A DNA stretch of 64,000 nt from a virus, in UHGV virus genome UHGV-0038498, one strand, 5' to 3'. The position numbers were made by a program, and so were the translations under genes. Shown one piece after another: positions 2,777 through 63,865 of this stretch. How positions within the stretch are numbered: position 1 is the first letter of the stretch; every line of letters begins with the position of its first letter. A model generated the notes under the pieces. That model was not told the origin of the DNA, made no database searches, and saw only the letters and a list, made by a program, of their open reading frames with translations.

Positions 2777-3012
2777 TGAAATTTCGTTTGGTACAGCTCA
2801 CAGCAATTAGTTCTTATTCTAACGAGAACATTTCATTTGCTGTAGAGTATAAGAAGTATTTTTTCTCTAGGTGGAAACAGTATTATAAGTCAGAATGGGT
2901 TTGTATTGATAGGCCGTATAGTTGGAAATCTGATTTAGAAAAATGCCAAAAGTTGCTTTCCACTCTTAAAGAACGTGGAACAACTCATATTAAAACTGTA
3001 ATAGGTAAATAA
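2776..3012 (+). CDS. hypothetical protein (78 aa)
   Basis: Small ORF between cd and gene 31, start overlaps cd stop. Confidence 0.45.
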   Translation: MKFRLVQLTAISSYSNENISFAVEYKKYFFSRWKQYYKSEWVCIDRPYSWKSDLEKCQKLLSTLKERGTTHIKTVIGK

Positions 3013-3321
3013 ATGAAATTGACGACTGAACAAAAAGTAGCAATTCGTGAAATTTTGAAAACTAAATTGTCCATGGGTATTTCAAACGTAGTTTTTGAAA
3101 AGTCTGATGGTACTATTCGTACTATGAAAGGTACTCGTGATGCAGACTTTATGCCAACCATGCAAACCGGTAAATTGACTGAATCTGCTCGGAAAGAATC
3201 TACTGATATGATTCCAGTATTTGATGTTGAGCTTGGTGCATGGCGAGGTTTTTCTATTGACAAATTGATTTCCGTTAATGGTATGAAAGTTGAGCATTTG
3301 CTTCAATTTATTGGTAAATAA
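3013..3321 (+). CDS. hypothetical protein (102 aa)
   Basis: Small ORF between cd and gene 31. Confidence 0.5.
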   Translation: MKLTTEQKVAIREILKTKLSMGISNVVFEKSDGTIRTMKGTRDADFMPTMQTGKLTESARKESTDMIPVFDVELGAWRGFSIDKLISVNGMKVEHLLQFIGK

Positions 3322-3350
3322 ATGCTTTAAGAATTATTTGTTATTATTAA
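3321..3350 (+). promoter_or_regulatory. middle-type (MotA-box-like) promoter upstream of gene 31
   Basis: aaTGCTTTAa followed ~12 nt later by TATTAT; T4 middle promoters carry a TGCTT box near -30. Confidence 0.5.
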
Positions 3351-3378
3351 TTCATCTGTTAACAAAAAGGAAAAAACG

Positions 3379-3714
3379 ATGTCTGAAGTACAACAGCTAC
3401 CAATTCGTGCTGTCGGTGAATATGTTATTTTAGTTTCTGAACCTGCACAAGCCGGTGATGAAGAAGTTACAGAATCAGGACTTATTATCGGTAAACGTGT
3501 TCAAGGTGAAGTTCCTGAACTGTGTGTAATTCACTCTGTTGGTCCTGATGTTCCTGAAGGTTTCTGTGAAGTTGGTGATTTGACTTCTCTTCCAGTTGGT
3601 CAAATTCGAAACGTTCCGCATCCTTTTGTAGCTTTGGGTCTTAAGCAGCCAAAAGAAATTAAACAAAAATTCGTTACCTGTCACTATAAAGCTATTCCGT
3701 GTCTTTATAAGTGA
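3379..3714 (+). CDS. 31: co-chaperonin for capsid folding (GroES analogue)
   Basis: 111 aa, sequence [22 protein letters not shown]... matches remembered T4 gp31; position between cd and rIII. Confidence 0.85.
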
Positions 3715-3840
3715 TATAAATAATAATATGAATTGGGTTTCAATTCTATGTGGTAGTCTACAACTGAGAGATCTGTCGAAAGAAGATGAAATTCAGAAGA
3801 ACGTGACTACCGAGTTTTAATCTCTAACGAGAATTTTTAA

Positions 3841-4089
3841 ATGATTAAACAATTACAACACGCTCTTGAACTGCAACGAAACGCATGGAATAATGGTCAC
3901 GAAAACTATGGCGCATCTATTGATGTTGAAGCCGAAGCTCTTGAAATCCTGCGTTATTTCAAACATCTGAATCCTGCTCAAACTGCATTAGCTGCTGAGC
4001 TTCAGGAAAAAGATGAACTTAAATATGCTAAGCCTCTGGCTTCTGCCGCACGAAAAGCAGTTCGTCACTTTGTGGTAACACTGAAGTAA
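3841..4089 (+). CDS. rIII: rIII lysis-inhibition accessory protein
   Basis: 82 aa, position immediately after gene 31 as in T4. Confidence 0.7.
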   Translation: MIKQLQHALELQRNAWNNGHENYGASIDVEAEALEILRYFKHLNPAQTALAAELQEKDELKYAKPLASAARKAVRHFVVTLK

Positions 4090-4208
4090 TTATGTTGACG
4101 AGGTTTATGGTTATCCTGTCGGTAAATATTCAAAACCTAAGTACCCCTTGAGGGCTTTCGCAGGCAATGCCAATAAGTCCTGCATTTTCATTTAAAAGAG
4201 AATTTATA

Positions 4209-4385
4209 ATGGCAAAACAAGCTAAAGCAAAGAAAGCAGTTGAAAAGAAAGTTGGTGATTCTAAACGCGCTGGTTACAAGCGTGGGTCGAACTCTCGTAT
4301 CAATCAAACTGTTGAGAAGATCATGCGCCGAGCACGTGCGGTTCTTCGAGATGATGCTTCTCGTTTTGGTAAGCAGAAAGCATAA
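4209..4385 (+). CDS. small basic protein (58 aa)
   Basis: ATG at 4209 (MAKQAKAKK...) with purine-rich RBS; followed by strong terminator hairpin 4391-4419. Confidence 0.45.
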   Translation: MAKQAKAKKAVEKKVGDSKRAGYKRGSNSRINQTVEKIMRRARAVLRDDASRFGKQKA

Positions 4386-4390
4386 GTTGA

Positions 4391-4419
4391 GGACTCCTTC
4401 GGGAGTCCTTTTTTATTTT
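4391..4419 (+). terminator. rho-independent terminator
   Basis: Hairpin GGACTCC-TTCG-GGAGTCC followed by TTTTTTATTTT. Confidence 0.75.
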
Positions 4420-4438
4420 CCAAAGATTGCATAAAGTT

Positions 4439-4488
4439 GTTTACAGTATAGTTCCTTTGTGATAGTATTATCTTACACAAACAAAGGA
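4439..4488 (+). promoter_or_regulatory. early promoter with inverted repeat around -10; 3' arm overlaps RBS
   Basis: GTTTAC 4439-4444, TAGTAT 4463-4468; arms TCCTTTGT 4453-4460 / ACAAAGGA 4481-4488 (includes AAGGAG RBS of ORF 4496). Confidence 0.6.
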
Positions 4489-4495
4489 GAATAAA

Positions 4496-4864
4496 ATGAA
4501 AATCAATCTTAACTCATACATCAAAGGTAAAGATCACGACGGCTATAAAGCTATCGAAACTAAAGAACTTCAGTGGCATTTATATAAAGAACAATTTGAA
4601 TTCGTAGATTGTATGACTCCTGAAGGTCCTTCTGATGATTTCTCTTGGAAAATAATGTTAACTAACTTTTTTACTGGAGATACATACGAATTAAAAACTT
4701 TGATTCTTGGTAAAATTCGCTGTGAGACTTATGAAGATAAAGAAACTGGTTACTCTGAAGATGTTACATGGTATCAAAATGGTCGTATTACCGCTGACCT
4801 CTTGATTGAAAAAATGAAAGCCAAAGGTGAATTAAATTTAGATAATTGGATTAAAGTTGCATAA
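4496..4864 (+). CDS. hypothetical early protein (122 aa)
   Basis: AAGGAG RBS; own early-type promoter upstream. Confidence 0.55.
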   Translation: MKINLNSYIKGKDHDGYKAIETKELQWHLYKEQFEFVDCMTPEGPSDDFSWKIMLTNFFTGDTYELKTLILGKIRCETYEDKETGYSEDVTWYQNGRITADLLIEKMKAKGELNLDNWIKVA

Positions 4865-4868
4865 AATA

Positions 4869-4908
4869 GTTTACTTTGGTACAGGATATGATATTATATA
4901 CCTGTACC
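4869..4908 (+). promoter_or_regulatory. early promoter with inverted repeat around -10
   Basis: GTTTAC 4869-4874, TATTAT 4893-4898; arms GGTACAGG 4878-4885 / CCTGTACC 4901-4908. Confidence 0.6.
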
Positions 4909-4934
4909 GCAATTAAACATCTTGGAGAATAAAA

Positions 4935-5300
4935 ATGAACTACATCAACTTTGAACGTAAATATGTTTCTAATGGTATTGCAGGTTCTATTGATACTATC
5001 TGCCTTTGGAAACATCAAAATGGATCAGTATGCGAAATTGAACAGTATATGACTCCTAACTACGTTTATATGCGATTTGAAAATGGCATCACGGTTTCAA
5101 TCACAATGGAAGGTTCCAACTTCAAAATTGCTTTGGATGATGATTTTCGTCAACGCGATTTAGGGACTCATCCTTGCTGGAATGGCGTTAATCGCAAGCT
5201 TCTGGTTAAAACTTGGATTCGTCATATTCTGAGTAACAGAGCTAAACCTGAGCATCTTGAAGCAATCTTTGATGTAGTTCTTAACGAATTTGATATTTAA
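4935..5300 (+). CDS. hypothetical early protein (121 aa)
   Basis: GGAG RBS; own early-type promoter upstream. Confidence 0.55.
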   Translation: MNYINFERKYVSNGIAGSIDTICLWKHQNGSVCEIEQYMTPNYVYMRFENGITVSITMEGSNFKIALDDDFRQRDLGTHPCWNGVNRKLLVKTWIRHILSNRAKPEHLEAIFDVVLNEFDI

Positions 5301-5341
5301 AATAAAATGAGGGGCTTCGGCCCCTTACTGAGGAAAATACT

Positions 5342-5629
5342 ATGTTTATGACTACTTATTTTGATACCCGCAAAAATTTCTGTGAAGTGGTTTTCTCTAA
5401 GGCGCCTAAAGACCTTCCTGCTCATTTGCAACCTACCAGCGAATCGATTAAAAACTACGTTAATGTAGTATGTCCTTTAGAGTTCCGTACTGTAAATGGG
5501 CGCGATACTTTAGCTATCACTAAACTCAATCGTGAAATTGACATTGACCCTTCAATTGCGCGTGAAATTAACATTTCTGATATTGGCGGCGGTAATGTTA
5601 AATCGCATGGCTTTCAGATGAGATTTTAA
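5342..5629 (+). CDS. hypothetical protein (95 aa)
   Basis: GAGGAAAA RBS; in 30.x-like ORF series. Confidence 0.5.
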   Translation: MFMTTYFDTRKNFCEVVFSKAPKDLPAHLQPTSESIKNYVNVVCPLEFRTVNGRDTLAITKLNREIDIDPSIAREINISDIGGGNVKSHGFQMRF

Positions 5630-5633
5630 TAAA

Positions 5634-5849
5634 ATGTTTAAGAAATTAATTCAGAAATTATTAGGTACGGAAATGGTTGAAGTTACTTATCGTGTGACTG
5701 ACGTTTCTCCTCTCACAGAAGACCATTTAGAGCCATATATTATGACAATTAAAATGCTTAAATATGATGGCGGATTATCTATTGAAGACCGTTTACCGGG
5801 TTACGGTCATTGGGCTGATGTTGAAATTATAAGTATTAAAGATGTCTGA
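5634..5849 (+). CDS. hypothetical protein (71 aa)
   Basis: Tightly packed same-strand ORF. Confidence 0.45.
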   Translation: MFKKLIQKLLGTEMVEVTYRVTDVSPLTEDHLEPYIMTIKMLKYDGGLSIEDRLPGYGHWADVEIISIKDV

Positions 5850-6300
5850 ATTAGAGATTAGAAGCAATTTTAAATGGCCATCATGTGCATTAAGTAATTT
5901 CGCCCAATGGCCTTTCGTTATGGATGGCATTCAATTTGGAGGTCTCGAAGGATTCCTCCAAGGGTGTAAGGTGAAAAATGTTGAACAGCAAAGACGTATA
6001 TTTGGGTTATCCGGGCTTGCCGCCCAACAAGCTGGAAGGTCTTATGCTAGAGCTCAGGACCGTGGGACGTTGTTCTGGCTTGGAGTTCCGTTTTCAAGAT
6101 ACTCTCCGGCGTGGAAAGAATTATACACAAATGCATATTTTGAAGCAGCGTTCCAAAACAAAGGCTTTCGCGATGCATTACAAGCCTCGAAAGGAAAAGT
6201 TTTGAAGCACAGCATGGCTAGTGGTCTAACAAAAGATGATACAATACTAACCGAAGCTGAATTTATTGATGTGTTAAACCTATTAAGAGACTCTCTATGA
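5842..6300 (+). CDS. NADAR/YbiA-like (DUF1768) protein
   Basis: Motif LSNFAQWPFVMDG resembles the FSNFAxWP..DG core of YbiA/NADAR proteins; 152 aa. Confidence 0.55.
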   Translation: MSELEIRSNFKWPSCALSNFAQWPFVMDGIQFGGLEGFLQGCKVKNVEQQRRIFGLSGLAAQQAGRSYARAQDRGTLFWLGVPFSRYSPAWKELYTNAYFEAAFQNKGFRDALQASKGKVLKHSMASGLTKDDTILTEAEFIDVLNLLRDSL

Positions 6301-7160
6301 AGCCTACTATTTTAACTGATATTGATGGAGTATGTTTAAGCTGGCAATCAGGTCTTCCTTATTTTGCTCAGAAATATAATCTTCCGTTAGAACATATTTT
6401 AAAAATGATCCAAGATGAGAAATTTATTTCTCCAGGTAAACTCTTTAATTGTGATGAAGAACTCGGTGTCAAGCTAATTGAAAAATACAATCGATCAGAT
6501 TTTATTCGTTACTTGTCTCCATATAAAGATGCCCTGTGTGTAATTAACAAATTAAAAGAAGATTATAATTTTGTAGCTGTTACAGCATTGGGTGATTCTA
6601 TTGACGCTCTGCTGAATCGTCAATTTAATTTGAATGCTCTTTTTCCTGGTGCCTTCTCAGAAGTAATGATGTGTGGTCATGATTCTTCAAAAGAAGAGTT
6701 ATTCAAAAAGGCAAAAGAGAAATATAACGTAATTTGTTATATTGACGATCTTGCTCACCACTGCGATCATGCGAGTGAAATATTAAATGTTCCGGTTTAT
6801 TGGATGGCTCGAGGAGAGCGTGACAATATTCCAAAAACTGCGCAGCGAGTTTATACATGGAATGATGTAGAAAATAAGCTTTTTTCACCGAAGGAAAATA
6901 AAGAAAGTTTTGATAGTGAAAAAGCTATAAAAGATGTAATTGAGAAGATGGTTAAAAACGATTCTTTTCGTTGGAACACTACCTGGAGAACTCCTGGATT
7001 TAATCCGTATAATCCATATTATACACATCCATATAATCCATATTATACACACCCGTATCATATGAATCCATTCCATACGTGGAGTTATACTAAGCCTGGT
7101 GATGCAGGGTATTTTAATAGATTTACTAGTGGTGATAATATTTTCCAAGGAGCATTCTAA
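6297..7160 (+). CDS. HAD-like protein with C-terminal Tyr/Pro-rich repeat tail
   Basis: N-terminal ILTDIDGV resembles HAD motif I; C-terminal NPYNPYYTHPY repeats; 287 aa; position of T4 30.2. Confidence 0.5.
   Translation: MKPTILTDIDGVCLSWQSGLPYFAQKYNLPLEHILKMIQDEKFISPGKLFNCDEELGVKLIEKYNRSDFIRYLSPYKDALCVINKLKEDYNFVAVTALGDSIDALLNRQFNLNALFPGAFSEVMMCGHDSSKEELFKKAKEKYNVICYIDDLAHHCDHASEILNVPVYWMARGERDNIPKTAQRVYTWNDVENKLFSPKENKESFDSEKAIKDVIEKMVKNDSFRWNTTWRTPGFNPYNPYYTHPYNPYYTHPYHMNPFHTWSYTKPGDAGYFNRFTSGDNIFQGAF
7008..7054 (+). repeat. 24-bp direct tandem repeat inside ORF 6297-7160
   Basis: TATAATCCATATTATACACA at 7008-7027 and again at 7032-7051; encodes YNPYYTHP twice. Confidence 0.7.
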
Positions 7161-7429
7161 TGTTTGTCGTTCACACTATTTATGAAAATGAAGGTAATAC
7201 TACACGCGATTACGGTCACGTGAATCAATTTTTTAGATGCAATCCAGAATTCCGAGCTCAAAAAGACGAACGAATTTTTAAAAAATGTGTAGAGCAAGGT
7301 TTCATTTATATCAAGCACTGGATGCAAGGAAATAAAGTTAGAACTACATATCATAGGTCTTTAACTGAGCTTAATGATGAATTGATTTATAATAGAGCTG
7401 TAAATCAAACTCTGAAGGATGAACAATGA
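7160..7429 (+). CDS. hypothetical protein (89 aa)
   Basis: ORF immediately upstream of ligase; stop overlaps ligase start. Confidence 0.5.
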   Translation: MFVVHTIYENEGNTTRDYGHVNQFFRCNPEFRAQKDERIFKKCVEQGFIYIKHWMQGNKVRTTYHRSLTELNDELIYNRAVNQTLKDEQ

Positions 7430-8889
7430 TTCTTAAAATTCTGAATGAAATAGCATCTATTGGATCAACTAAGCAGAAGCAAGCAATTCTTGAAAAGAAT
7501 AAAGATAATGAATTGCTTAAACGAGTATATCGTCTGACTTATTCTCGTGGGTTACAGTATTATATCAAGAAATGGCCTAAGCCTGGTATTGCTACCCAGA
7601 GTTTTGGAATGCTGACTATTACCGATATGCTTGACTTCATTGAATTCACGTTAGCTACTCGGAAATTGACCGGAAATGCTGCAATTGAGGAATTGACTGG
7701 ATATATCACCGATGGTAAAAAGGATGATGTTGAAGTTTTGCGTCGAGTGATGATGCGAGACCTTGAATGCGGTGCTTCAGTATCTATTGCAAACAAAGTT
7801 TGGCCAGGTTTAATTCCCGAACAACCTCAAATGCTGGCAAGTTCTTATGATGAAAAAGGCATCAGTAAGAATATCAAATTTCCAGCTTTTGCACAGTTAA
7901 AAGCAGATGGAGCTCGGTGTTTTGCTGAAGTCCGAGGTGATGAATTAGATGATGTTCGTCTTTTATCACGAGCTGGTAATGAATATCTAGGATTAGATCT
8001 TCTTAAGGAAGAGTTAATCAAAATGACTGCTGAAGCCCGCCAGATTCATCCAGAAGGTGTGTTAATTGATGGCGAATTGGTATACCACGAGCAAGTTAAA
8101 AAGGAACCAGAAGGCCTAGATTTTCTTTTTGATGCTTATCCTGAAATTAGTAAAGCTAAAGAATTCGCCGAAGTAGCGGAATCTCGTACTGCTTCTAATG
8201 GAATCGCCAATAAATCCTTAAAAGGAACCATTTCCGAAAAAGAAGCTCAATGCATGAAGTTTCAGGTCTGGGATTATGTCCCGTTGGTAGAAATATACGG
8301 TCTTCCGGCGTTTCGTTTAAAATATGATGTACGTTTTTCTAAACTAGAACAAATGACATCAGGATATGATAAAGTAATTTTAATTGAAAACCAGGTAGTA
8401 AATAACCTAGATGAAGCTAAGGTAATTTATAAAAAGTATATTGACCAAGGTCTTGAAGGTATTATTCTCAAAAATATCGATGGATTATGGGAAAATGCTC
8501 GTTCAAAAAATCTCTATAAATTTAAAGAAGTAATTGATGTTGATTTAAAAATTGTAGGAATTTATCCTCACCGTAAAGACCCTACTAAAGCAGGTGGATT
8601 TATTCTTGAATCAGAGTGTGGAAAAATTAAAGTAAATGCTGGTTCAGGCTTAAAAGATAAAGCCGGTGTAAAATCACATGAACTTGACCGTACTCGCATT
8701 ATGGAAAACCAAAATTATTATATTGGAAAAATTCTAGAGTGCGAATGCAACGGTTGGCTAAAATCTGATGGCCGCACTGATTACGTTAAATTATTTCTTC
8801 CGATTGCGATTCGTTTACGTGAAGATAAAACTAAAGCTAATACATTCGAGGATGTATTTGGTGATTTTCATGAGGTAACTGGTCTATGA
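7426..8889 (+). CDS. 30: ATP-dependent DNA ligase
   Basis: 487 aa; N-terminus MILKILNEIASIGSTKQKQAILEK... and adenylation motif region (FPAFAQLKADGARCFAEV) match remembered T4 DNA ligase. Confidence 0.95.
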   Translation: MILKILNEIASIGSTKQKQAILEKNKDNELLKRVYRLTYSRGLQYYIKKWPKPGIATQSFGMLTITDMLDFIEFTLATRKLTGNAAIEELTGYITDGKKDDVEVLRRVMMRDLECGASVSIANKVWPGLIPEQPQMLASSYDEKGISKNIKFPAFAQLKADGARCFAEVRGDELDDVRLLSRAGNEYLGLDLLKEELIKMTAEARQIHPEGVLIDGELVYHEQVKKEPEGLDFLFDAYPEISKAKEFAEVAESRTASNGIANKSLKGTISEKEAQCMKFQVWDYVPLVEIYGLPAFRLKYDVRFSKLEQMTSGYDKVILIENQVVNNLDEAKVIYKKYIDQGLEGIILKNIDGLWENARSKNLYKFKEVIDVDLKIVGIYPHRKDPTKAGGFILESECGKIKVNAGSGLKDKAGVKSHELDRTRIMENQNYYIGKILECECNGWLKSDGRTDYVKLFLPIAIRLREDKTKANTFEDVFGDFHEVTGL

Positions 8890-9074
8890 AAGCTTACTTA
8901 GAAACAATTGTCGTTGCTCAAAAAGAAGGTGAAGATGTTTCTACTTCTGTATCACAAATTATGATTGAATTTATAGATGCATATGCTTATAATAAATTCA
9001 CAGAAACATTTGATGCCTATGAAAAAGGTCCAAAGTTTGAAATATATCGTACTCTCTTACCAATAGATTATTAA
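8886..9074 (+). CDS. hypothetical protein (62 aa)
   Basis: Small ORF overlapping ligase stop; followed by terminator hairpin. Confidence 0.4.
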   Translation: MKAYLETIVVAQKEGEDVSTSVSQIMIEFIDAYAYNKFTETFDAYEKGPKFEIYRTLLPIDY

Positions 9075-9095
9075 AGGCCTTCGGGCCTTTAATTT
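9075..9095 (+). terminator. rho-independent terminator
   Basis: Hairpin AGGCC-TTCG-GGCCT followed by TTAATTTT. Confidence 0.6.
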
Positions 9096-9103
9096 TATAA
9101 ATA
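9096..9103 (+). promoter_or_regulatory. late promoter (TATAAATA) for alt
   Basis: Exact TATAAATA 21 nt upstream of alt ATG, after terminator hairpin. Confidence 0.65.
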
Positions 9104-9123
9104 GAATAAACACTAGAGAGGAT

Positions 9124-11220
9124 ATGATGGAACTCATTACAGAATTATTTGACGAAGATACTACTCTTCCGATTACAAACTTAAATCCAAAGAAGAAAAT
9201 ACCGCAAATTTTTTCAGTTCATGTTGATGACGCAATTGAACAACCAGGATTTCGTTTATGTACCTATACATCTGGAGGTGATACTAATCGCGATTTAAAG
9301 ATGGGCGATAAAATGATGCATATTGTTCCTTTTACATTAACTGCTAAAGGTTCAATTGCTAAATTAAAAGGTCTCGGTCCAAGCCCAATTAATTATATCA
9401 ATTCAGTTTTTACTGTTGCGATGCAGACGATGCGTCAGTATAAAATTGATGCATGTATGCTCCGTATTCTTAAGTCTAAAACTGCTGGTCAAGCTCGTCA
9501 AATTCAACTTATTGCTGATAGACTTATCCGTAGTCGCTCAGGTGGCAGATACGTCCTTCTTAAGGAACTCTGGGATTACGATAAAAAGTATGCATATATT
9601 CTTATACATCGCAAAAATGTATCATTAGAAGACATTCCAGGAGTTCCTGAAATTAGTACCGAGCTCTTTACTAAAGTTGAATCGAAGGTCGGTGATGTTT
9701 ATATCAATAAAGATACTGGAGCTCAAGTAACTAAAAATGAGGCAATTGCAGCATCTATTGCGCAAGAAAACGATAAACGTTCTGACCAAGCTGTAATCGT
9801 TAAAGTTAAAATTTCCCGTAGAGCAATTGCACAAAGTCAGTCATTGGAATCTTCTAGATTTGAAAGTGAATTATTCCAGAAGTATGAATCTACTGCAGCT
9901 AATTTCAATAAACCTGCTACCGCTCCTTTAATTCCCGAAGCGGAAGAAATGAAACTTGGAATTAATTCACTAGCTTCTAAAACTAAGGCAGCAAAAATCA
10001 TTGCCGAAGGAACTGCAGATGAACTTCACTATGATTATAAATTCTTTTCAAAAAGTGAGGTTAATGAAGTTTCTGAAAAAATTAAAGATGTAATTCTTAA
10101 TGCGATTAAAAATGAACCAACTACTTCAATAAAATGTTTAGAGAAATACGCAGCAGCTATTAATAAATTCTTTGAAGAATACAAAGATACTTGGCTTGAT
10201 AAACATAATAAAACCCGTAAAGGACAGCCAGATGAAGTTTGGGAAGAAATAACTAAAAATTCCTGGAACGCAGCAAAAACTAAATTCCTCAAACGAATGA
10301 TTTATAGCTTTTCTGGAATTGGTGCAGGTCCAATGATTGATATTACTATTGCCCGTGATGGTTCGAAATATACTCCATCACAAAAGCGCGGCATTAGAGA
10401 GTATTGTGGTTCAGGATATACTGACATCAATAATCTTCTTTTAGGACGCTACAATCCAGAACGATATGATGTAATGAGTGAAAAAGAAATTGAATCTGCT
10501 ATAAATAACTTAGATTCAGCTTTTGAAAATGGTGACCGTATACCGGAAGGCATTACAGTTTATCGTGCTCAAAGTATGACTGCTCCTATATACGAAGCAT
10601 TAGTTAAAAATAAAGTGTTCTATTTCAGAAATTTTGTATCTACTTCTTTAACTCCTATCATTTTTGGACGTTTTGGAATTACACATGCTGGTATTGGTCT
10701 TTTAGAACCAGAAGCTCGTAATGAATTAACAGTTGATAAAAATGAAGAAGGAATAACTATTAATCCAAACGAAATAAGAGCGTATAAAGAAAATCCTGAA
10801 TACGTTAAAGTTCAAATAGGATGGGCAATTGATGGAGCTCATAAAGTTAATGTTGTATATCCAGGAAGTCTCGGAATAGCAACCGAAGCTGAAGTTATTC
10901 TACCACGCGGATTGATGGTCAAAGTTAATAAAATAACTGATGCTTCTAATAATGACGGAACAACATCTAATAATACAAAACTCATTCAAGCTGAAGTTAT
11001 GACTACGGAAGAACTCACCGAATCAGTAATTTATGACGGTGACCGTCTAATGGAAACCGGCGAAGTAGTTGCAATGACAGGTGATATTGAAATAGAAGAC
11101 AGAGTTGACTTTGCATCATTTGTTTCATCAAATGTTAAACAAAAAGTAGAATCATCTCTTGGAATTATTGCGTCTTGCATAGATATTACAAACATGCCTT
11201 ACAAGTTCGTTCAAGGATAA
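9124..11220 (+). CDS. alt: Alt-type ADP-ribosyltransferase (capsid-packaged)
   Basis: 698 aa; N-terminal MELITELFD targeting-like sequence; R-S-EXE motifs (VYRAQ, FVSTSL, EAEVILPRG); TATAAATA 21 nt upstream. Confidence 0.85.
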   Translation: MMELITELFDEDTTLPITNLNPKKKIPQIFSVHVDDAIEQPGFRLCTYTSGGDTNRDLKMGDKMMHIVPFTLTAKGSIAKLKGLGPSPINYINSVFTVAMQTMRQYKIDACMLRILKSKTAGQARQIQLIADRLIRSRSGGRYVLLKELWDYDKKYAYILIHRKNVSLEDIPGVPEISTELFTKVESKVGDVYINKDTGAQVTKNEAIAASIAQENDKRSDQAVIVKVKISRRAIAQSQSLESSRFESELFQKYESTAANFNKPATAPLIPEAEEMKLGINSLASKTKAAKIIAEGTADELHYDYKFFSKSEVNEVSEKIKDVILNAIKNEPTTSIKCLEKYAAAINKFFEEYKDTWLDKHNKTRKGQPDEVWEEITKNSWNAAKTKFLKRMIYSFSGIGAGPMIDITIARDGSKYTPSQKRGIREYCGSGYTDINNLLLGRYNPERYDVMSEKEIESAINNLDSAFENGDRIPEGITVYRAQSMTAPIYEALVKNKVFYFRNFVSTSLTPIIFGRFGITHAGIGLLEPEARNELTVDKNEEGITINPNEIRAYKENPEYVKVQIGWAIDGAHKVNVVYPGSLGIATEAEVILPRGLMVKVNKITDASNNDGTTSNNTKLIQAEVMTTEELTESVIYDGDRLMETGEVVAMTGDIEIEDRVDFASFVSSNVKQKVESSLGIIASCIDITNMPYKFVQG

Positions 11221-11223
11221 ATC

Positions 11224-13281
11224 ATGGAACTTATTACAGAATTATTTGACGGCGCTTCGGCGCCGGTTGTTAACTTAAATCCTAAGCATAAAATACCTCA
11301 AATTTTTGCTATTCAAGCCGGCGAAGAAAGTGTGCTTCCTGGATTTAGATTTTGTACATACACCTCTGGCGGTGATACAAATAAAAACGTTAAGCCAGGC
11401 GATAAAATGATGCATATCGTAATGATAGGTGTTAATGAGAAACTATCATTAGTTAAACTTAAAAACTTGGGTGGAAATCCAATTGGTGTCATTAATGCCG
11501 TTTTTGATACTGCTCTTCAAACAATGAAACAGTATAAAATTGACGCATGCTTATTCCGCGTACTAAAAAGTAAAACAAATGGCGCAGCTCGTCAAATGCA
11601 AGTTATTGCTGACCGTTTAGTACGTACTAAAGGAGCAGGTCGATATGTTCTTTTAAAGGAAATCTGGGATTATGATAAAAAGTATGCATATATTATGGTT
11701 TACCGTAAAAATGCCAATTTAGAAGACATTCCAGGTGTACCTCCTATTTCAACTGAGTTATTCACAAAAGTTGAATCAAAGGTTGGTGATGTGTATGTAG
11801 ATGTTAAAACAGGTAATGCTGTTCCTAAAGCTGTTGCTGTTGCTGCTTCTATTGCCTTAGAAAATGATAAGCGCACGGATCAAGCTGTTATTCAGAAAAC
11901 TAAAATTAGTCGTCGATTAGCAGCGCAAGCTCAATATTCTACTGTCGATGCTTCACTACAGAGTGATAGCTTCGCTGCCAAGAAATATCAAGAGTTTGAA
12001 TCTAAAGTTCCGGTACATAAAGCAGAAGGACCAATGAACTCTGGCGTTATTCAGATTGGTTCAAACTTCGGCAAAGGAGCTATCGGTGGTATGAGAAGTG
12101 CTTCTCGTTTTAAATCTAACGATTATGAACTAGAAAGCTTCCGAAATCATATTGCATTGGCCCATGCACGTTTACGTGATCCATCTATCAAGCTGCAGAG
12201 CGATATAACATATCAAGGTTCTCAAGAATATTTAAAGAATAAAGAATTTTTTGATTATAAAACCGATAAAATTTTGAGCGATCTCGCTGACATTAATATT
12301 TCTAATAGCTTTGATGTTATTAAGAAAATTATCAATGATTTAGTTAAAGGTTCTAAAGCTACGCCAGACGAAAAGGTAGCTATTATTCAATTTGTCATGA
12401 ATGGCATTTATAAATTGATTAATGAATCTGCTGCCCAGGCGTATGAATACGCAAGCACCGAAGTAACTCCAAAAGGACTGACTCAGGCTGAGTCTGATGT
12501 AATTGAAGATTATTGTGCAGATTCATATGTTGAAATGAACTCGTTCCTCTTGGGTAAACCAGATTCTACCCGTGAAGAATACATGGAACGAGCTATTAAA
12601 CACATCGAGACAATGGATTCTGCCTTTGCCAAAGGTTCAGTTCTTCCTCCAGGAACTACGCTTTATCGTGGACAAGAAGTTACTTTTAAAACTTTACGCC
12701 ATAATATTGAAAATAAAATGTTCTATTTCAAGAACTTCGTATCAACATCGCTTAAACCAAATATCTTCGGTGAGCATGGTAAAAACTATATGGCTCTAGA
12801 TGATTCCGGCGCAGTATTTTCTGGTGAAGGAGAAGGTTCTGTTGATGCTGAAGATTTAATGCATATGGGTAGTCATTCTGCTTATGCGAATGAAGATGCT
12901 GAAACTAGCGTAGGTATGGTAATTAAAGGGGCTGAGCGAATCAAAGTTATCGTTCCAGGTCATTTATCAGGATTTCCATCAGAAGCTGAAGTTATTCTAC
13001 CGCGTGGAATTTTGTTGAAGATTAATAAAGTAAGCACGTACATGATGAAAGAAACTGCTTATAACAAGTATCTAATCGAAGGCACAATCGTTCCTCCTTC
13101 TGAACAATTAGAAGAATCGGTATATGATGGCGATCATCTAATGGAAACTGGTGAAGTTCGTCCAATGGCTGGGTTTAATCAATTCCTTGTAGAAGAATCA
13201 AAAGAAGAGGAAAACGAAGTTTCTCAAATCTTGGCTTCTTTGGTTAACATCAACGGAATGTCTAAAAAGTTCAAGATGTAG
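11224..13281 (+). CDS. Alt-like ADP-ribosyltransferase paralog
   Basis: 685 aa; same N-terminus (MELITELFD) and R-S-EXE motifs (LYRGQ, FVSTSL, EAEVILPRG); central ~250 aa diverge from upstream copy. Confidence 0.8.
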   Translation: MELITELFDGASAPVVNLNPKHKIPQIFAIQAGEESVLPGFRFCTYTSGGDTNKNVKPGDKMMHIVMIGVNEKLSLVKLKNLGGNPIGVINAVFDTALQTMKQYKIDACLFRVLKSKTNGAARQMQVIADRLVRTKGAGRYVLLKEIWDYDKKYAYIMVYRKNANLEDIPGVPPISTELFTKVESKVGDVYVDVKTGNAVPKAVAVAASIALENDKRTDQAVIQKTKISRRLAAQAQYSTVDASLQSDSFAAKKYQEFESKVPVHKAEGPMNSGVIQIGSNFGKGAIGGMRSASRFKSNDYELESFRNHIALAHARLRDPSIKLQSDITYQGSQEYLKNKEFFDYKTDKILSDLADINISNSFDVIKKIINDLVKGSKATPDEKVAIIQFVMNGIYKLINESAAQAYEYASTEVTPKGLTQAESDVIEDYCADSYVEMNSFLLGKPDSTREEYMERAIKHIETMDSAFAKGSVLPPGTTLYRGQEVTFKTLRHNIENKMFYFKNFVSTSLKPNIFGEHGKNYMALDDSGAVFSGEGEGSVDAEDLMHMGSHSAYANEDAETSVGMVIKGAERIKVIVPGHLSGFPSEAEVILPRGILLKINKVSTYMMKETAYNKYLIEGTIVPPSEQLEESVYDGDHLMETGEVRPMAGFNQFLVEESKEEENEVSQILASLVNINGMSKKFKM

Positions 13282-62917: not shown

Positions 62918-63004
62918 GCGAGAATGGTCAAATTGGTAAAGGCACAGCACTTAAAATGCTGCGGAATGATTTCCTTGTGGGTTCGAGTCCCACTTCTCGC
63001 ACCA
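62918..63004 (+). tRNA. tRNA-Leu (anticodon UAA)
   Basis: Cloverleaf by eye: acceptor GCGAGAA/TTCTCGC, anticodon loop cTTAAAa, long variable arm, 3' ACCA. Confidence 0.85.
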
Positions 63005-63009
63005 AATTT

Positions 63010-63083
<74 letters not shown>

Positions 63084-63093
63084 ATTTAATTTA

Positions 63094-63167
63094 CTCCGTG
63101 TAGCTCAGTTTGGTAGAGCGCCTGATTTGGGATCAGGAGGTCCAAGGTTCAAATCCTTGTATGGAGA
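63094..63167 (+). tRNA. tRNA-Pro (anticodon UGG), no encoded CCA
   Basis: Acceptor CTCCGTG/TATGGAG (with G-U pairs), anticodon loop tTTGGGa, T-loop GTTCAAATC. Confidence 0.75.
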
Positions 63168-63169
63168 CT

Positions 63170-63259
63170 GGAGGCGTGGCAGAGTGGTTTAATGCACCGG
63201 TCTTGAAAACCGGCAGTCGCTCCGGCGACTCATAGGTTCAAATCCTATCGCCTCCGCCA
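63170..63259 (+). tRNA. tRNA-Ser (anticodon UGA)
   Basis: Acceptor GGAGGCG/CGCCTCC, anticodon loop cTTGAAaa, long variable arm, 3' GCCA. Confidence 0.85.
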
Positions 63260-63264
63260 GTTTT

Positions 63265-63340
63265 GCTGATTTAGCTCAGTAGGTGGAGCAACTCACTTGT
63301 AATGAGAAGGTCGGCGGTTCGATTCCGTCAATCAGCACCA
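63265..63340 (+). tRNA. tRNA-Thr (anticodon UGU)
   Basis: Acceptor GCTGATT/AATCAGC, anticodon loop cTTGTAa, T-loop GTTCGATTC, 3' ACCA. Confidence 0.8.
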
Positions 63341-63341
63341 A

Positions 63342-63416
63342 GGCCCTGTAGCTGGAAGGTTCAAGCAAGCGACTCATAATCGCCAGATGGTGGTTCAATT
63401 CCACCCAGGGCCACCA
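63342..63416 (+). tRNA. tRNA with CAU anticodon (Ile via lysidine, or Met)
   Basis: Acceptor GGCCCTG/CAGGGCC, anticodon loop cTCATAa, T-loop GTTCAATTC, 3' ACCA. Confidence 0.75.
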
Positions 63417-63429
63417 AATTAAGAATTAA

Positions 63430-63516
63430 GGGGAGTTATCCCGTAGAGGTAGCGGTGTGGACTGTAAATCCATTGTCATTGCGACTCGGGTGGTTCGACT
63501 CCATCACTCCCCACCA
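63430..63516 (+). tRNA. tRNA-Tyr-like (anticodon GUA), class II with long variable arm
   Basis: Acceptor GGGGAGT/ACTCCCC, anticodon loop cTGTAAa, T-loop GTTCGACTC, 3' ACCA; D-arm irregular. Confidence 0.6.
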
Positions 63517-63520
63517 ATTT

Positions 63521-63595
63521 GGATGTGTAGCTCAATGGCAGAGCGATCGCCTGTTAAGCGATTGGTTATAGGTTCGAATCCTATCACGTCCGCCA
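63521..63595 (+). tRNA. tRNA-Asn (anticodon GUU)
   Basis: Acceptor GGATGTG/CACGTCC, anticodon stem ATCGC/GCGAT with loop cTGTTAa, T-loop GTTCGAATC, 3' GCCA. Confidence 0.7.
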
Positions 63596-63709
63596 AATTT
63601 GTGACAACTGTCACATTAATATCTACTTGACGCGATTATAGGGGTTGAACTGATCACTCTTCTCTTAATTTCGTGTGAAGACATCTTGATTGTTGGAGTA
63701 GGTATTAAT

Positions 63710-63785
63710 GTGGCCGTAGTTCAGTTGGTAGAACTCGAGATTGTGATTCTCGTAGTCATGGGTTCGACTCCCATCGGTCACCCCA
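63710..63785 (+). tRNA. tRNA-His (anticodon GUG)
   Basis: Acceptor GTGGCCG/CGGTCAC, anticodon stem CGAGA/TCTCG with loop tTGTGAt, T-loop GTTCGACTC, 3' CCCA. Confidence 0.65.
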
Positions 63786-63789
63786 ATTA

Positions 63790-63865
63790 CGGGGCATAGC
63801 TCAGAAGGAAGAGCAAGGACCTTCTAAGTCCTAGGTCGTAGGTTCGATCCCTACTGCCTCGACCA
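63790..63865 (+). tRNA. tRNA-Arg (anticodon UCU)
   Basis: Acceptor CGGGGCA/TGCCTCG (C1-G72), anticodon stem AGGAC/GTCCT with loop cTTCTAa, T-loop GTTCGATCC, 3' ACCA. Confidence 0.75.

Follow-up and report, generated by a model that had tools for sequence, protein, structure and literature searches.

What does a phage use a small NADAR protein for when the gene lies close to two ADP-ribosyltransferase genes: to edit the modifications made by its own enzymes, or to counter those of its host? The question is raised by an open reading frame (ORF) at positions 5842-6300 (+ strand, ATG start, product of 152 residues, as read from the sequence) of UHGV virus genome UHGV-0038498, a stretch of 64,000 nucleotides that we will henceforth refer to as the window. 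The original prediction had likened the product to YbiA/NADAR (DUF1768) proteins and proposed both roles, namely an eraser of ADP-ribose added by the phage's pair of Alt transferases and a counter to host ADP-ribosylating defence. We identified the ORF as adfN (gene 30.3) from a T4-like Tequatrovirus, and it very probably encodes a T4-type AdfN, i.e., a minimal, stand-alone NADAR enzyme which removes DarT1-derived guanine ADP-ribose from phage DNA. The function of gene 30.3 is already known, its presence is ordinary in a phage of the T4 kind, and the window reveals no new biology in this respect.

The identity of the gene is evident at several levels. The DNA of the region is 95-98% identical to many Tequatrovirus genomes, and its genes follow the order of T4 (NC_000866): 30.8, 30.7, 30.6, 30.4, 30.3, 30.2, 30.1, DNA ligase (gene 30), alt.1 and alt. 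The product has the same length as T4 gp30.3 and is identical to it at 149 of 152 residues (98%); the three substitutions (K11R, F104I and M125I) fall in freely varying alignment columns (e.g., column 125, with Met in 38 and Ile in 34 sequences) and have no bearing on the enzyme itself, while Escherichia phage A6-6 encodes a protein that is 100% identical. The window gene also shares with that of T4 its position between 30.4 and 30.2, the overlaps of its start and stop codons with these neighbours, residues E36, K43 and H123, and an intact C-terminal helix. The features of the gene are as follows.

5842..6300, + strand: coding sequence of adfN (gene 30.3), a stand-alone phage-type NADAR domain of 152 residues
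5842..5849, + strand: ATGTCTGA, in which the adfN start overlaps the stop of upstream gene 30.4 (5634..5849), in the gene order of T4
5890..5928, + strand: codons of LSNFAQWPFVMDG (residues 17-29), the N-terminal NADAR core motif flagged by the original prediction, aligned to FSNFAAWPIKVDG of YbiA
5947..5949, + strand: GAA, Glu36, the catalytic glutamate, equivalent to YbiA E48 and invariant (81/81)
5968..5970, + strand: AAG, Lys43, a conserved catalytic or ADP-ribose-contacting lysine, equivalent to YbiA K55 and invariant (81/81)
6208..6210, + strand: CAC, His123 in the last strand, the signature of phage gp30.3-type NADARs, invariant (81/81)
6253..6294, + strand: C-terminal alpha-helix, residues 138-151, intact (DSSP on the predicted model)
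6297..6300, + strand: ATGA, in which the adfN stop overlaps the start of gene 30.2 (6297..7160)

The 30.3/30.2 overlap of four nucleotides is identical in T4 (record positions 128307-128310 of NC_000866). Given that its start overlaps the upstream stop and its stop the downstream start, adfN sits within a tightly packed block, in which the neighbours are co-oriented. That adfN is a real gene rather than a chance ORF follows from three observations. The product matches Pfam PF08010 (Phage_30_3, “Bacteriophage protein GP30.3”) over the full profile (all of positions 1-138), scoring 232.8 bits where the cut-off is 36 (E=1.3e-69); tblastn found the gene in 1511 phage records, with 1505 of them matched over at least 80% of its length; and differences from relatives are mostly synonymous (11 synonymous and 3 non-synonymous codon changes relative to T4, 40 and 5 relative to IMG/VR locus L013). 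The ORF and the motif on which the original prediction was built are thus borne out. In GenBank, most of the phage records listed label the gene “hypothetical protein”.

The role of this gene in T-even phages has been established experimentally. Resistance of T2 and T4 to the DarTG1 system was mapped to gene 30.3 via recombination with RB69, and T4 gp30.3 was renamed AdfN (anti-DarT factor NADAR; Johannesman et al., Nat Commun 2025, PMC11825919). AdfN was identified as a guanine-specific DNA ADP-ribosylglycohydrolase, which T-even phages need for resistance to DarTG1 and which suffices for it: T4 and T2 lacking adfN no longer form plaques on cells with DarTG1, supplying adfN ectopically rescues RB69 in full, and the purified protein, which does not bind DarT1, strips ADP-ribose from DarT1-modified DNA (PMC11825919). 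AdfN offers no protection from DarTG2, the toxin of which produces thymidine-ADP-ribose (PMC11825919). In independent biochemical work, T4 NADAR cleaved guanosine- but not thymidine-ADP-ribose (PMC11125620; PMC12945103). Well before those experiments, bioinformatic analyses had set phage NADARs apart as a subfamily. The suggestion of a counter to host ADP-ribosylating defence therefore coincides with the established function of T4 gp30.3/AdfN (PMC11825919).

In the mechanism proposed for the window phage, the DarT1 toxin of a host DarTG1 system would ADP-ribosylate guanines in phage DNA and thereby block replication. AdfN would then hydrolyse the N-glycosidic bond that joins ADP-ribose to the guanine, which would restore unmodified DNA and allow replication to proceed, so that the protein would serve as a phage-borne “orphan antitoxin” acting like the host's DarG1. 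The enzymatic activity, guanine specificity and anti-DarTG1 phenotype are presumed by analogy, being carried over from experiments on the 98%-identical T4 protein. With this level of identity and every functional residue intact, the T4 mechanism is overwhelmingly likely to operate in the window phage as well.

We assessed these residues by counting invariant positions over 81 family members, in the alignment prepared for the structure model, which did not include the T4 sequence. All 81 agree at S18, N19, F20, E36, G37, F38, Q40, K43 and H123, and E36, Q40 and K43 align with YbiA E48, Q52 and K55, respectively. Mutational data on AdfN-T4 show what two of these positions contribute: E36A abolishes activity in vitro and leaves partial rescue in vivo, and K43A likewise gives only partial rescue (PMC11825919). 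The residue in the last strand divides the superfamily: YbiA-type proteins have Glu there, DarG1-type proteins Asp, and phage NADARs of the gp30.3 type His (PMC11125620; PMC12945103). H123 comes to lie opposite YbiA E125 when one further, ungapped column is added to the hhalign alignment. As to the terminal helix, the RB69 allele carries a frameshift that ends the protein 15 residues early, with loss of this helix and reduced activity (PMC11825919). Together, the PF08010 score, the orthology with T4, the E36 and K43 pair, His123 and the C-terminal helix place the product in the Phage_30_3/AdfN family. Among close relatives we also encountered shorter proteins (clusters of 126, 109 and 89 residues, and OR352946.1, whose match spans residues 1-144 only), which may represent adfN alleles shortened or frameshifted in the manner of RB69.

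The relationship to YbiA was examined with several comparisons more sensitive than a direct search. Pairwise BLASTP of the product against E. coli K-12 YbiA aligns residues 18-70 (34% identity over 56 residues; E=9e-6), with SNFAQWPFVMDG opposite YbiA SNFAAWPIKVDG. A profile of 82 gp30.3-family sequences matches YbiA (PDB 2b3w) at E=0.0067 in a PDB profile search, and hhalign of the family alignment against YbiA yields a probability of 93.4% (E=2.5e-7, 90 columns). Some source databases name relatives “YbiA (DUF1768 family)”. Finally, the predicted structure adopts the YbiA/NADAR fold, with approximately 20% identity to YbiA over the structural alignment. Profiles and model thus agree in identifying the adfN product as a member of the NADAR superfamily, in keeping with the original family call and with the structural comparison proposed alongside it. 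The possibility of a macrodomain or ARH-type protein de-ADP-ribosylase was rejected, as we obtained no above-noise fold match other than to NADARs.

Several points weigh against this account and need to be set beside it. The search against a NADAR profile, which had been put forward as a check, gave a divided answer: hmmscan of the window protein alone against Pfam at E<=1 returned Phage_30_3 as the sole match, with no hit to PF08719 (NADAR), whereas 34 of the 82 family members match PF08719 individually (best 1.5e-7). Nor did the window protein match anything in NCBIfam or PADLOC at E<=1, and phmmer against PDB gave only a chance match at E=0.8. Given that direct searches with the single sequence do not retrieve NADAR, the superfamily link rests on profile and structure evidence. 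At the functional level, AdfN-T4 fails to relieve DarT1 toxicity in E. coli that is not infected, and gives only weak rescue of phages other than T-even ones (PMC11825919); the known mechanism is for these reasons incomplete, and a T-even factor is suspected. Furthermore, the “E. coli T4 phage NADAR (gp30.3)” construct in the 2024 Toxins study is given as residues 1-208, as opposed to the 152 residues of gp30.3, which leaves the identity of that construct unclear (PMC11125620). Lastly, the experiments concern the T4 and T2 alleles, and we infer from the 98% identity that the window allele would behave like that of T4.

How then should the two ADP-ribosyltransferases be viewed? The pair noted in the original prediction, some 3 kb away, is indeed present: two tandem Alt-type paralogues, both matching PF03496, lie on the + strand at 9124..11220 (698 residues) and 11224..13281 (685 residues), the first beginning 2.8 kb downstream of the adfN stop codon. 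An enzyme of a family that hydrolyses ADP-ribose adducts thus shares one co-oriented early region with two transferases, and NADAR could in principle reverse or edit ADP-ribosylation by the phage's own Alt proteins (e.g., on protein arginines, or as off-target clean-up). We nevertheless consider such a pairing of writer and eraser very unlikely. Reported NADAR substrates are ADP-ribosylated bases, namely guanine in DNA and RNA and, for some NADARs, cytosine (not listed for the phage type), and thymidine-ADP-ribose is not cleaved; the T4 record, by contrast, lists Alt as a mono-ADP-ribosyltransferase of a protein (RNA polymerase). DarTG1 fully accounts for the phenotype of the adfN deletion. 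Moreover, an Alt gene was found within 8 kb in just 3 of 66 distant gp30.3-type loci from IMG/VR, all three with T4-like synteny, nor did any family of neighbouring genes prove conserved over 72 distant loci. This part of the original prediction is hence unsupported, and the proximity of adfN and alt in the window is inherited T4 gene order. The window phage carries two full-length Alt paralogues downstream whereas T4 has one plus remnants (the second copy being reduced to the fragments alt.-1 and alt.-2), a difference with no bearing on the enzyme; two copies are also annotated in other Tequatroviruses, e.g., ime09 and slur07.

An alternative reading of the NADAR fold is a housekeeping N-glycosidase of the YbiA type, which would cleave reactive intermediates of the riboflavin pathway or another small-molecule N-glycoside and so play an auxiliary metabolic role. 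E. coli YbiA is such an N-glycosidase (PDB 2b3w, PF08719), encoded by a host housekeeping gene in a dinG/ybiB neighbourhood and with a role in riboflavin metabolism. However, the last-strand Glu that defines its subfamily (E125) is replaced by His in 81 of 81 gp30.3-type sequences, in the published phylogeny the T4-type cluster lies closest to DarG1 antitoxins rather than YbiA (PMC11825919), and the genetic phenotype is specific to DarTG1. We give this reading almost no credence: judging by the His-for-Glu replacement, the adfN product is not a YbiA-type glycosidase. A broader role as a nucleic-acid de-ADP-ribosylase, in which AdfN would also clear guanine-ADP-ribose from RNA or counter other, yet undescribed guanine-directed ADP-ribosyltransferase defences, is a possibility that we entertain more seriously, if tentatively. 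All NADAR families tested, including that of T4, remove guanine-ADP-ribose from both RNA and DNA in vitro (PMC12945103), the authors of the AdfN study raised this idea themselves (PMC11825919), and retention of at least 80% of the gene's length in 1505 of the 1511 matching phage records, across many host genera, is wider than one defence system would suggest. Its biochemical basis is nonetheless in vitro, and it extends the explanation by removal of DarT1-derived guanine ADP-ribose rather than replacing it.

While AdfN works like DarG1, it is not a DarG1 antitoxin. DarG1 (DarT1-associated, BC4488 family; e.g., Geobacter lovleyi NADAR, PDB 8bat) differs from the adfN product in that the latter has no adjacent DarT1 (its neighbours are 30.4 and 30.2, and the nearest ADP-ribosyltransferases are the Alt-type genes), has His123 in place of the catalytic last-strand Asp, and consists of the core only, without the N-terminal extension of DarG1 (the 8bat chain has 219 residues). 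These three differences underlie our conclusion. In addition, AdfN-T4 cannot substitute for DarG1 in uninfected cells, and no PADLOC model matches the adfN product. Functional counterparts are AdfN-Bas32 and AdfN-Bas60, from T5-like and Vequintavirinae phages, which share the counter-defence role and guanine specificity of AdfN-T4 (PMC11825919). They belong to other NADAR clades, acquired independently, and neutralise DarT1 without phage infection, whereas the T4 type needs a T-even infection context.

In search of a conserved partner that might account for the T-even dependence or favour a pairing of writer and eraser, we used tblastn to compare the window's neighbouring proteins with 80 IMG/VR loci (14 close and 66 distant). 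For 86 loci (72 distant), every ORF lying up to 4 kb from the gene was also clustered de novo. Beyond T4-family synteny, we found no conserved partner: among the distant loci, 9 carried the ligase, 8 gp30.2 and 3 Alt. The larger de novo clusters consisted of overlapping, alternative-frame ORFs inside adfN itself, and two metagenomic contexts that were inspected contained neither gp30.2 nor Alt. In this survey adfN behaves as a stand-alone module. We also observed that three ENA metagenome contigs (L003, L004 and L005; up to 308 kb), jumbo-phage-like in character, encode a 39%-identical gp30.3-type NADAR with a NUDIX hydrolase gene within 5 kb and, in L003 and L005, a Thg1-like gene likewise; no homologue of gp30.2, ligase or Alt was detected near the NADAR in these contigs.

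Adjacency of 30.3 and 30.2 was seen in 13 of 14 close but only 8 of 66 distant loci, and is limited to T4-like genomes. Residues 8-12 encoded by gene 30.2 (+ strand) form a DIDGV motif of the sort typical for HAD phosphatases, and the product of the gene matches phrog_420 (unknown function) and is called “HAD-like” in a few GenBank records; searches of gp30.2 against Pfam and NCBIfam returned no match. Judging by these features, the gene is possibly HAD-phosphatase-like. The gp30.2 of the window (287 residues) is 90% identical to T4 gp30.2 (278 residues), and the region encoding its C-terminus contains a 24-nucleotide tandem repeat (2.3 copies, 7003..7058) that duplicates NPYYTHPY relative to the T4 protein. 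That the translationally coupled 30.2 is the T-even potentiating partner of AdfN, or that AdfN acts in vivo on a second substrate tied to the phage's ADP-ribosyltransferases, strikes us as improbable; gene 30.2 is one of many possible candidates for the T-even factor, and its adjacency offers a lead only.

Other elements of the window were recorded in passing. An internal ORF of 75 residues (5978..6205, + strand), in another frame inside adfN, corresponds to the annotated T4 gene 30.3'. Its frame stays open in most close relatives, yet the ATG is changed to ACG in locus L009 and to ATT or ATC in a group of about 86% identity, and in locus L019 a stop occurs after 13 codons. With the start codon lost in several relatives and an early stop in one, 30.3' was left out of the adfN feature, and from these comparisons its conservation as a gene appears doubtful. 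A promoter and terminator scan of 3000..9200 was uninformative (26 promoter-like sites against 21.5 +/- 4.8 expected). Farther along, 62918..63865 (+ strand) holds a cluster of 10 tRNA genes: Leu-taa, Gly-tcc, Pro-tgg, Ser-tga, Thr-tgt, Met/Ile-cat, Tyr-gta, Asn-gtt, His-gtg and Arg-tct. With eight tRNAs in the T4 reference, the set in the window is the larger one.

For phage biology, the state of adfN has predictable consequences. An intact gene, as in the window phage, is predicted to confer resistance to DarTG1-carrying hosts, while a truncation of the RB69 type predicts sensitivity to DarTG1; the same sensitivity would be expected of phages with the shorter alleles described above, should these prove RB69-like. 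Distinguishing intact from truncated adfN is useful for host-range prediction and for the choice of therapeutic phages. The window also touches on the question of why enzymes of the T4 type depend on the context of a T-even infection. The main value of the finding, however, is one of annotation, as the label “hypothetical protein” persists although the function has been known since 2024-2025.
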